Counted from the stretch's first letter, positions 60,584 to 61,872 are shown. The stretch is DNA of 64,000 bases from Dictyostelium discoideum (GCA_000004695.1 CM000152.2:5824001-5888000); one strand, 5' to 3'. Notes: generated by a model not told the origin, from the letters alone. Numbers and translations are program-made.

Positions 60584-60669
60584 AAATAGTTTCAATTTTT
60601 TTTTTTTTTTTATTTATAGAGTCATTATCATCACCAGTATTATTTAATTGTAAAATTTCAAATTCTTCA

Positions 60670-60801
60670 ATGACACACAATGACGATATAAATAAATATG
60701 ATATTAATAACTTGTCATTGTTTTACAATAATAAAGTATCAAGATGGAGTCCAACTATAATTTGGAGAGGACAAGGCGGAAGAAATCGTGTAGTTTTCTA
60801 A
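60670..60801 (+). CDS. Small ORF, paralogue 1 of a WRGQGG-ending peptide pair (minimal single-exon version, 43 aa). An open frame extends upstream to an AG at about 60619, so an upstream exon is possible.
   Basis: MTHNDDINKYDINNLSLFYNNKVSRWSPTIIWRGQGGRNRVVF*. The C-terminal 20 aa are near-identical in pattern to the ORF ending at 61872. Confidence 0.3.
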   Translation: MTHNDDINKYDINNLSLFYNNKVSRWSPTIIWRGQGGRNRVVF

Positions 60802-60897
60802 ACCTAACTGACATCATTTATATCGGTTAAATTATTTATTAACATTATTGTATATAATATATATATATATTACAAAATATTCCATTTTTCGAATTTA

Positions 60898-60936
<39 letters not shown>

Positions 60937-61597
60937 AATAAAAATAAAAGAAAAAAATAAAGAAAATAAAAAAAAAAATAAAGAAAAAATTAAAAAATAA
61001 AAAAAATAAAAAAACTATAATTTGTTTGTTATCAGTCAGCCTATCATCACCTATAGTATCTTTTTTTTTTTTTTTTTTTTTTGAAACCAAATTGGGTAAT
61101 CACCTAATCTATAATCAATAAAATGGAATGTAGTAAAAATACCAACACCGTGGGTGTGGTAAATTTAATTATCTTTTATCTACATATACACATAGGTATA
61201 AATTTTTATATTAAAATATTGTTGTTGTGGTTGGTGGTGATACACTAACAGTACGTAAATTCACACACTCACACACACTTCAACAACTCATTATTTAAAA
61301 AAAATTTCTTAAAGTATTTATTTTTTCTAATACCTAAAATAATAAATAATATAAATACAAAAAATGAGGTTTTCTATGAATAATTTAAAATAGAAAAAAA
61401 TATAAAAAAATTAAATAATTTTTAAACTTTGTTAATAAAAAAAAAATTGCTATAAAATAAAATAAAAAAATAAAAAAAAAATTCATTTAAAAAATAAAAG
61501 TTAGGAAAATAAACTAGACCAAAAAAAAAAAAAAAGAAAAAATCCGATTATAAATAAAAAAATATTATATAAAAAAAAAAAAAAAAGAAAAAGAAAA

Positions 61598-61872
61598 ATG
61601 ACTATTTCAAGTAAGTAAAAACTTTATTTTTTATCACTAAATATATAAATATAATTTTGTTCATATACTAAATTTAGTTTTTCTAAATAATAATAAAATT
61701 AGATTCTTTAAAATTATTAAATATCGGAAATGCTATTAAAACAAATGAAATAGATTATAATAATAAAAAATTTTTAAATAATAATATAAATCAAAATATT
61801 AATGAAACTTCAAAATGGGTACCAAACATTTTGTGGCGTGGTCAAGGTGGAAAAAATATTATTGCCTTTTAA
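61598..61872 (+). CDS. Small two-exon ORF (61598..61610 and 61703..61872), paralogue 2 of the WRGQGG-ending peptide pair (61 aa).
   Basis: ATGACTATTTCAA|GTAAGT donor. AAAATTAG acceptor at 61702, phase 1. Product MTISNSLKLLNIGNAIKTNEIDYNNKKFLNNNINQNINETSKWVPNILWRGQGGKNIIAF*. Confidence 0.35.

Follow-up and report, generated by a model that had tools for sequence, protein, structure and literature searches.

A tandem pair of predicted microprotein genes with a conserved WRGQGG-type tail in Dictyostelium discoideum

Two small genes with a shared C-terminal tail

The window analyzed here is a 64 kb stretch of DNA with a GC content of 20.9%. It derives from chromosome 3 of Dictyostelium discoideum AX4, whose proteins it matches at 100% identity. 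A six-frame motif scan of the entire 64 kb located exactly two WRGQGG-type tails, both on the + strand, at positions 60736-60798 and 61807-61869. Each tail forms the end of a small ORF that is annotated as coding for a hypothetical protein. ORF1 (gene 1) is DDB_G0282773, which is annotated as 43 amino acids in length with an ATG at 60670. ORF2 (gene 2) is DDB_G0282523, which codes for 60 amino acids. The features of the two genes, in coordinates of the window, are as follows.

60489..60501 (+): relic of the ancestral 13-nt exon 1 of gene 1, from a four-species alignment of the locus sequences
60502..60619 (+): relic intron of gene 1, in which AX4 has TTTTGT in place of the donor GTAAGT but keeps the acceptor ...TTATTTATAG at 60610-60619
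60620..60801 (+): ancestral exon 2 of gene 1, open from the acceptor onward
60670-60801 (+): annotated CDS of DDB_G0282773, 43 amino acids, stop included
60736..60798 (+): conserved C-terminal module of gene 1, VSRWSPTIIWRGQGGRNRVVF, GC 41% versus 20% in the body
61598..61610 (+): exon 1 of gene 2 (DDB_G0282523), a 13-nt ORF, ATGACTATTTCAA
61611..61702 (+): intron of gene 2, 92 nt, GTAAGT...TTAG, phase 1; splicing gives the annotated protein
61703..61872 (+): exon 2 of gene 2, stop included
61807..61869 (+): conserved C-terminal module of gene 2, TSKWVPNILWRGQGGKNIIAF, GC 37% versus 11% in the body

A preliminary description of this DNA had quoted both ORFs and both tails as they are present in the sequence. 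It was also right about the 13-nt first exon of gene 2 and the intron at 61611-61702, because the spliced product, MTISNSLKLLNIGNAIKTNEIDYNNKKFLNNNINQNINETSKWVPNILWRGQGGKNIIAF, is 100% identical to the annotated DDB_G0282523 protein. For ORF1, which had been drawn from 60611, the segment 60670-60801 is indeed CDS, but the stretch upstream of it consists of a relic acceptor and relic coding sequence. The preliminary description did not include the existing annotation of both genes, the decayed exon/intron junction of ORF1, or an architecture like that of the sigN/hssA genes.

The stop codons of gene 1 (60799-60801) and gene 2 (61870-61872) are separated by 1071 nt. It had been stated that more than 1 kb of pure A/T DNA precedes each ORF, but GC is 12.3% over positions 59600-60600 upstream of gene 1, and the spacer from the gene 1 stop to the gene 2 ATG is 796 nt long with a GC content of 16.3%. 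Conserved blocks bearing G and C nucleotides are located inside this spacer.

BLASTP comparison of the two paralog types aligns the last 20 residues alone, with an E value of 3e-10 for this single comparison. A total of 12/20 positions are identical and 16/20 are positive, and thus an earlier count of 14 of 20 conserved positions is slightly too high if read as identities. The two AX4 hypothetical proteins were already annotated, and they are paralogs that define an undescribed family.

Orthologs, distribution and neighboring genes

Syntenic loci were obtained via the D. firmibasis ortholog and the orthologs of a downstream DUF4922 gene. In D. firmibasis, D. cf. discoideum, and D. citrinum, the tandem pair is located upstream of the DUF4922 gene with shared order and strand. 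The D. firmibasis pair is annotated, with products of 60 and 58 amino acids. In D. cf. discoideum (GCA_054859235.1; L003 8156-9566) and D. citrinum (GCA_054859145.1; L004 8175-9529), both microprotein genes are intact and no gene is called at these positions. The preliminary description had suggested a search for further family members, whose absence would have favored a local duplication of non-coding DNA, and this search has yielded orthologous pairs in three other species.

No copy of the pair was found in the 21 kb examined at the syntenic locus of D. purpureum (L005). A HMMER profile search of 1.84 billion representative proteins recovered the family members and two repetitive artefacts but nothing else, and of 147 occurrences of the pattern WRGQGG[KR]N in metagenome contigs, none proved to be a relative. 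Thus, the family seems to be confined to the D. discoideum species complex, in which each genome has two copies.

The surroundings of the pair differ somewhat among the species. The gap between gene 2 and the DUF4922 gene is ~0.4-0.5 kb in AX4, D. cf. discoideum, and D. citrinum, whereas in D. firmibasis a gene for a 699-aa EGF-like protein (L001 11533-13760, - strand) lies between the two. The upstream neighbor in D. firmibasis is an RFC/Rad17-like AAA gene, versus polyubiquitin in those three. In the window, a five-repeat polyubiquitin ORF (54544-55689, - strand) adjoins a peroxiredoxin (AhpC-TSA) gene that is split by an intron (53300-53659 and 53761-54111, - strand), the whole stretch spanning 53300-55689. 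Both of these neighbors are also present in D. cf. discoideum and D. citrinum. At the D. purpureum locus, the DUF4922 gene is tandemly duplicated (L005 10001-12876; 428 and 421 aa), with a GHMP kinase gene immediately upstream.

Elsewhere in the window, FNIP-repeat ORFs form a cluster at 46598-52256 (46598-47224, +; 48000-49811, -; 49962-52256, -). The 4.8 kb that precede gene 1 are poor in genes apart from a DUF5898 fragment (56742-57095, - strand). Two tRNA-Val(AAC) genes with identical scores (44008-44082 and 46128-46202, + strand) are located 2.1 kb apart. The ORFs between and beside them (45400-45936 and 42236-43570) have no Pfam hit, and could be remnants of tRNA-targeted retroelements.

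Protein features

The tail comprises 21 residues with the consensus [VT]S[RK]WxPxIxWRGQGG[RK]Nxxx[FL], and the stop codon follows directly. It carries two tryptophans and has a net charge of +3 in gene 2 and +4 in gene 1. A single R or K precedes the first Trp in 8/8 copies. The N-terminus, M-[TS]-[IL]-[SF]-x-S-L, is short and likewise conserved, and is encoded by the 13-nt exon 1 plus the start of exon 2. The remainder is a fast-evolving, low-complexity linker that varies in both sequence and length, wherein N, S, K, and I make up 54-63% of the residues.

None of the eight members gave a Pfam hit that reached threshold. A match to DUF5492 (PF17596) was considered and rejected: it was seen with 1/8 members, is confined to the low-complexity linker, and scores 15.5 bits (E = 0.022) against a gathering score of 27 bits. 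A profile search of PDB sequences returned nothing meaningful, the best match being RecU at E = 7.7, and literature searches for 'WRGQGG', DDB_G0282523, and DDB_G0282773 found no paper. These results agree with the earlier assertion that no described family carries this motif.

An AlphaFold2 model built from a 4-sequence alignment has a mean pLDDT of 52 and a pTM of 0.17, and its tail has no defined structure. The succession of W-x-P-x-I-x-W, GQGG, and N-x-[VI]-x-[FL] would suit a beta-hairpin, although this is speculation to which the AlphaFold2 model lends no support.

The presence of signal peptides was assessed with a simple Kyte-Doolittle hydropathy test. No signal-peptide-like hydrophobic core was seen in the 8 proteins, whose best 8-residue means at the N-terminus are 0.97-1.46 and whose longest hydrophobic runs are 3-4 residues. 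The same 8 proteins have no transmembrane segment (maximum 19-residue mean <=0.63) and no dibasic processing site, in that no KR or RR pair occurs ahead of the first Trp. These characteristics lend no support to the initial impression of a secreted protein or peptide-precursor family. Given that none of the eight proteins has a signal peptide, any secretion would need an unconventional route.

Selection on the tail

Nei-Gojobori counts summed over ortholog pairs give a pN/pS of 0.13 for the tail (last 21 codons) and 0.56 for the body, meaning the rest of the protein, and these estimates are based on few substitutions. Between the paralogs, the tail is saturated for synonymous change (dS ~1.6) at a dN of ~0.38, and one tail Arg is encoded by AGA in one paralog versus CGT in the other. 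The ORF, the position of the stop, and a phase-1 intron of 80-119 nt are kept in 8/8 copies. The 13-nt exon 1 is found in 7/8 copies, and AX4 gene 1 is a decayed version of this layout. In the four-species alignment, indels are many in the introns and flanks, but not in the tails.

The contrast in pN/pS between tail and body argues that the pair is protein-coding rather than a non-coding duplication. In addition, the bias of tail changes toward synonymous positions, combined with introns and flanks rich in indels, points to selection at the protein level rather than on a conserved DNA or RNA element. These codon changes show selection on the tail as a functional part of both predicted proteins, and it is very probable that the pair consists of real, selected protein-coding genes. 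The proposal that the ORFs represent a small family is right, and the pair as observed goes far beyond what chance would produce.

An alternative is that the two ORFs stem from a local duplication of non-coding DNA, or that the gene models are spurious, and that their conservation reflects the closeness of the species or a function of the RNA or DNA. The four species are indeed close, such that their intergenic DNA can be aligned at 76-82% mean column identity. Furthermore, the proteins are tiny and have no homologues in the searches described above, and the supplementary data examined for one life-cycle proteome paper mention neither of the two genes nor their predicted tryptic peptides, WSPTIIWR (gene 1) and WVPNILWR (gene 2). 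However, tail substitutions are overwhelmingly synonymous while the neighboring introns and flanks gather indels, and the paralogs retain 12/20 residues in spite of synonymous saturation. The preservation of ORF, stop, and intron phase in every copy is also contrary to this alternative, as are the developmentally regulated transcript of gene 2 (see below) and the lack of an Rfam match over positions 58500-62300. We consider that the codon-level pattern effectively refutes the non-coding explanation, which is highly improbable.

AX4 gene 1 as a truncated derivative

In the three other species, gene 1 begins with ATGTCA(A/C)TTTTTA|GTAAGT, and exon 1 of D. cf. discoideum and D. citrinum reads ATGTCAATTTTTA. 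The corresponding AX4 sequence at 60489-60507 is AGGGCAATTTTTA|TTTTGT. Five AX4 substitutions fall within these 19 nt of exon 1 and donor, where they hit both the start codon and the donor, and the flanks are unchanged. The acceptor at 60619 survives, as do 16 in-frame codons (SLSSPVLFNCKISNSS) that still resemble those of the orthologs. By this alignment, AX4 gene 1 is an N-terminally truncated derivative of a predicted ancestral gene for 60-64 amino acids, and no longer has the original start codon and splice donor. Either exon 1 was truly inactivated in this lineage by the changes at 60489-60507, or the reference sequence is at fault there.

There is no ATG between 60300 and 60670 in AX4, and the one at 60670 is the first. 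Thus, a ribosome scanning any AX4 transcript would start at this internal Met, which is conserved in all species. The predicted product of AX4 gene 1 is 43 amino acids with an intact tail, and by this reasoning the annotated gene model is reasonable. A different upstream exon for AX4 gene 1, with ATGCAT|GTGAGC at 60122, was also considered. This candidate was rejected because the 36-nt block in which it is located is equally invariant in species whose real exon 1 lies elsewhere.

Expression of gene 2

Transcript values were found for gene 2 only, and these are low, at no more than ~23 units. DDB_G0282523 is among the rows with stalk as the highest cell-type value in the RNA-seq data of Kin et al. 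2018 (supplement 5, PMC6198379), which are as follows.

Time course, DDB_G0282523 (PMC6198379): 0 h, 0; 4 h, 0.74; 8 h, 1.78; 12 h, 2.18; 16 h, 4.97; 20 h, 22.7; 24 h, 12.2
Cell types, DDB_G0282523 (PMC6198379): prespore, 1.11; prestalk, 2.72; cup, 0.44; spore, 0.09; stalk, 4.02; vegetative, 0

These values indicate low-level, late transcription with a bias toward the stalk lineage. Gene 2 is transcribed late, with a peak at 20 h that corresponds to culmination, is biased toward stalk and prestalk cells, and is off in growing cells. The preliminary description had held that a lack of transcripts would count against the genes, and such support now exists for DDB_G0282523 (PMC6198379). Exact-product look-ups of the two AX4 proteins in Logan assemblies returned no contigs and hence no transcript support from that source.

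Candidate regulatory elements

Several conserved non-coding blocks are located near the two genes. The roles given for the core promoters are inferred from their sequence and position.

59600..59616 (-): G-box cluster CACCCACCCCCACCCAA, ~0.9 kb upstream of gene 1
60104..60139 (no strand assigned): 36-nt non-coding block AAAAGACAAACACAGTCATATGCATGTGAGCAAAAA, identical in four species, no Rfam match
60309..60366 (+): candidate core promoter of gene 1, a conserved block with TATAAATT...GTTTTC
60812..60842 (+): 3'-flank block of gene 1, CATCATTTATATCGGTT.AATTATTTATTAA, ~31 nt, nearly invariant in four species
61150..61160 (+): G-box-like element GTGGGTGTGGT, conserved in AX4, D. cf. discoideum, and D. 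firmibasis
61262..61278 (-): CA-rich element CACACACTCACACACAC, a minus-strand G-box found in all four species
61306..61385 (+): candidate core promoter of gene 2, a conserved block with TATAAATA...GGTTTTC

The GBF consensus (T/G)G(T/G)G(T/G)G(T/G) (PMC2257962) is matched at 61151-61159, 61271-61277, 59601-59615, and 59425-59433, and these sites are partly conserved across species. The matches are weak evidence because the motif is common throughout the window, where 61 are observed versus 24 expected. The G-boxes suggest that transcription might depend on GBF.

The 36-nt block at 60104-60139 is positioned ~0.4-0.5 kb upstream of gene 1 amid AT-rich DNA that is ridden with indels, and it is a candidate regulatory element. 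The block at 60812-60842 has no counterpart after gene 2 and is possibly a regulatory element of the 3' UTR. Two short upstream ATGs (61364 and 61376) occur between the TATA-like block and the start of gene 2 (61364-61393). The ATG at 61376 opens a putative 5-codon uORF (ATGAATAATTTAAAATAG), whose ATGAATAA start is conserved in four species.

Relationship to the sigN (hssA/2C/7E) family

The gene structure described here is reminiscent of a large Dictyostelium family. Vicente et al. 2008 (PMC2257962) reported 96 sigN-related genes (hssA/2C/7E family) that code for proteins of <120 aa, and 89/96 of these consist of two exons, the first with a 13-nt ORF, separated by a single intron of 66-128 nt. 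GBF-like G-boxes occur in their promoters, induction of groups 1 and 2 takes place in prestalk cells at 10-12 h, and the proteins are high in Cys, Gly, and Ser but low in Lys and Arg (PMC2257962). The sigN/hssA-2C-7E family also includes an 88-aa suppressor of polyglutamine aggregation (PMC8554618).

Our pair shares with these genes the 13-nt exon 1 ORF (7/8 copies), a single short intron (80-119 nt here, 66-128 nt there), small products that can start with MTI, and a tandem or clustered arrangement. Developmental induction with a prestalk/stalk bias is also shared, as gene 2 rises from 0 at 0 h to 22.7 at 20 h. The G-box matches upstream of the pair, to a motif frequent across the window, may be a further point in common. 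Neither group has homologues outside dictyostelids. Thus, the two genes might be highly divergent members of the sigN/hssA-2C-7E family (Pfam PF05710, 'Coiled'), with the redundant role in prestalk/stalk matrix or adhesion that has been proposed for it.

However, the proteins themselves do not resemble sigN products. The PF05710 profile gave no match at E <= 10 to any of the 8 members, even though two sigN-like sequences match it at 1.6e-26 and 4.7e-15, which indicates that the model would detect true members. An hhalign comparison of the family with one of these PF05710-validated sigN-like sequences aligned the 3 residues 'MTI' alone, with a probability of 1.5%. The composition is opposite as well. 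The pair lacks the Gly/Ser/Cys-rich core, the terminal cysteines, and the predicted hydrophobic segment of sigN proteins, and instead has a basic body rich in N, S, K, and I that leads into a WxPxIxWRGQGG tail of charge +3 or +4, in which the only Gly residues are those of GQGG.

Moreover, expression of the pair, as judged by gene 2, peaks at 20 h versus 10-12 h for sigN, and there are two copies per genome versus 96 genes. The 96-gene table carries older DDB0 identifiers and was therefore compared with the pair by gene structure. It has no chromosome 3 row with 60 aa and a 92-nt intron, or with 43 aa. An origin by frameshift from a sigN-like exon 2 was considered and set aside, as exon 2 read in its other frames gives no sequence rich in Gly, Ser, or Cys.

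Membership of the pair in the sigN family thus fails on sequence, and we regard it as unlikely. We treat the pair as a new variation on a known gene architecture and not as part of the sigN family. Because exon 2 has no similarity to sigN or PF05710 sequences, shared ancestry with sigN is conjecture.

Proposed role

The best explanation overall, to which we assign a probability of about 0.55, is that the two genes are a clade-restricted microprotein pair in which the tail is a recognition element carried on a disordered linker. In this model, two independently transcribed, tandemly duplicated, two-exon genes would encode microproteins of ~60 amino acids. The tail would be a peptide-sized recognition element, presented on the disordered linker, that might bind a partner (a protein or a component of the wall or matrix) in culminating cells of the stalk lineage. 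GBF-type G-boxes would drive transcription, and the genes would be built on the same chassis as the sigN/hssA family, with its 13-nt exon 1, short intron, and tandem expansion, and might share its ancestry. In AX4, gene 1 would now yield a 43-aa product that starts at the conserved internal Met and keeps the tail intact.

For the mode of action of the tail, we tentatively favor a tethered binding motif over a released peptide, although at somewhat below even odds. The contrary view is that the proteins are peptide precursors, such that the body is a pro-region and the tail is cleaved off after the R or K that precedes the first Trp. The product would be secreted unconventionally to serve as a culmination signal or an antimicrobial. 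This would explain why strong constraint is confined to the tail, why one basic residue is placed ahead of the first Trp in all eight copies, why the tail is both cationic and aromatic, and why gene 2 expression peaks at culmination. The processing of AcbA to SDF-2 is a Dictyostelium precedent for such a pathway. However, signal peptides and dibasic sites are absent, and a disposable pro-region would not account for the conservation of M-[TS]-I-[SF]-x-S-L at the N-terminus. Release of the tail from a precursor is therefore quite unlikely in our estimation.

A bolder version would make the 18-21-residue tail a new bioactive peptide (a stalk-lineage signal, an antimicrobial, or a wall-binding factor) that is cut off behind the conserved R or K and released at culmination without a leader, its exon 2 having been recently grafted onto a sigN-type chassis. 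This combination would be a long shot.

If the tail of the proposed microproteins does function in recognition or signaling, the pair would constitute a new, genetically tractable two-gene module for late Dictyostelium development. It would also show how the prolific chassis with a 13-nt first exon can give rise to proteins whose sequences bear no relation to sigN/hssA. On a practical level, the annotations of D. citrinum and D. cf. discoideum omit these orthologs.

Comparison with known systems

Dictyostelium AcbA is a leaderless precursor that is processed to the peptide signal SDF-2. The pair resembles the AcbA/SDF-2 system in that small proteins without signal peptides are produced with culmination timing and carry a basic residue at a putative cleavage point. 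However, AcbA belongs to the conserved acyl-CoA-binding proteins and adopts a defined fold, whereas the microprotein pair has no confident fold and no homology, and any processing or release of its tail would be hypothetical.

A second comparison is with orphan microproteins. The members of the pair are similarly short, lineage-limited, and of low complexity. In both cases constraint falls on a single short motif, and expression is low and stage-specific. They differ from typical orphans in that both paralogs have been retained in four species under clear purifying selection, and in that the pair reuses an architecture typical of an existing large family.
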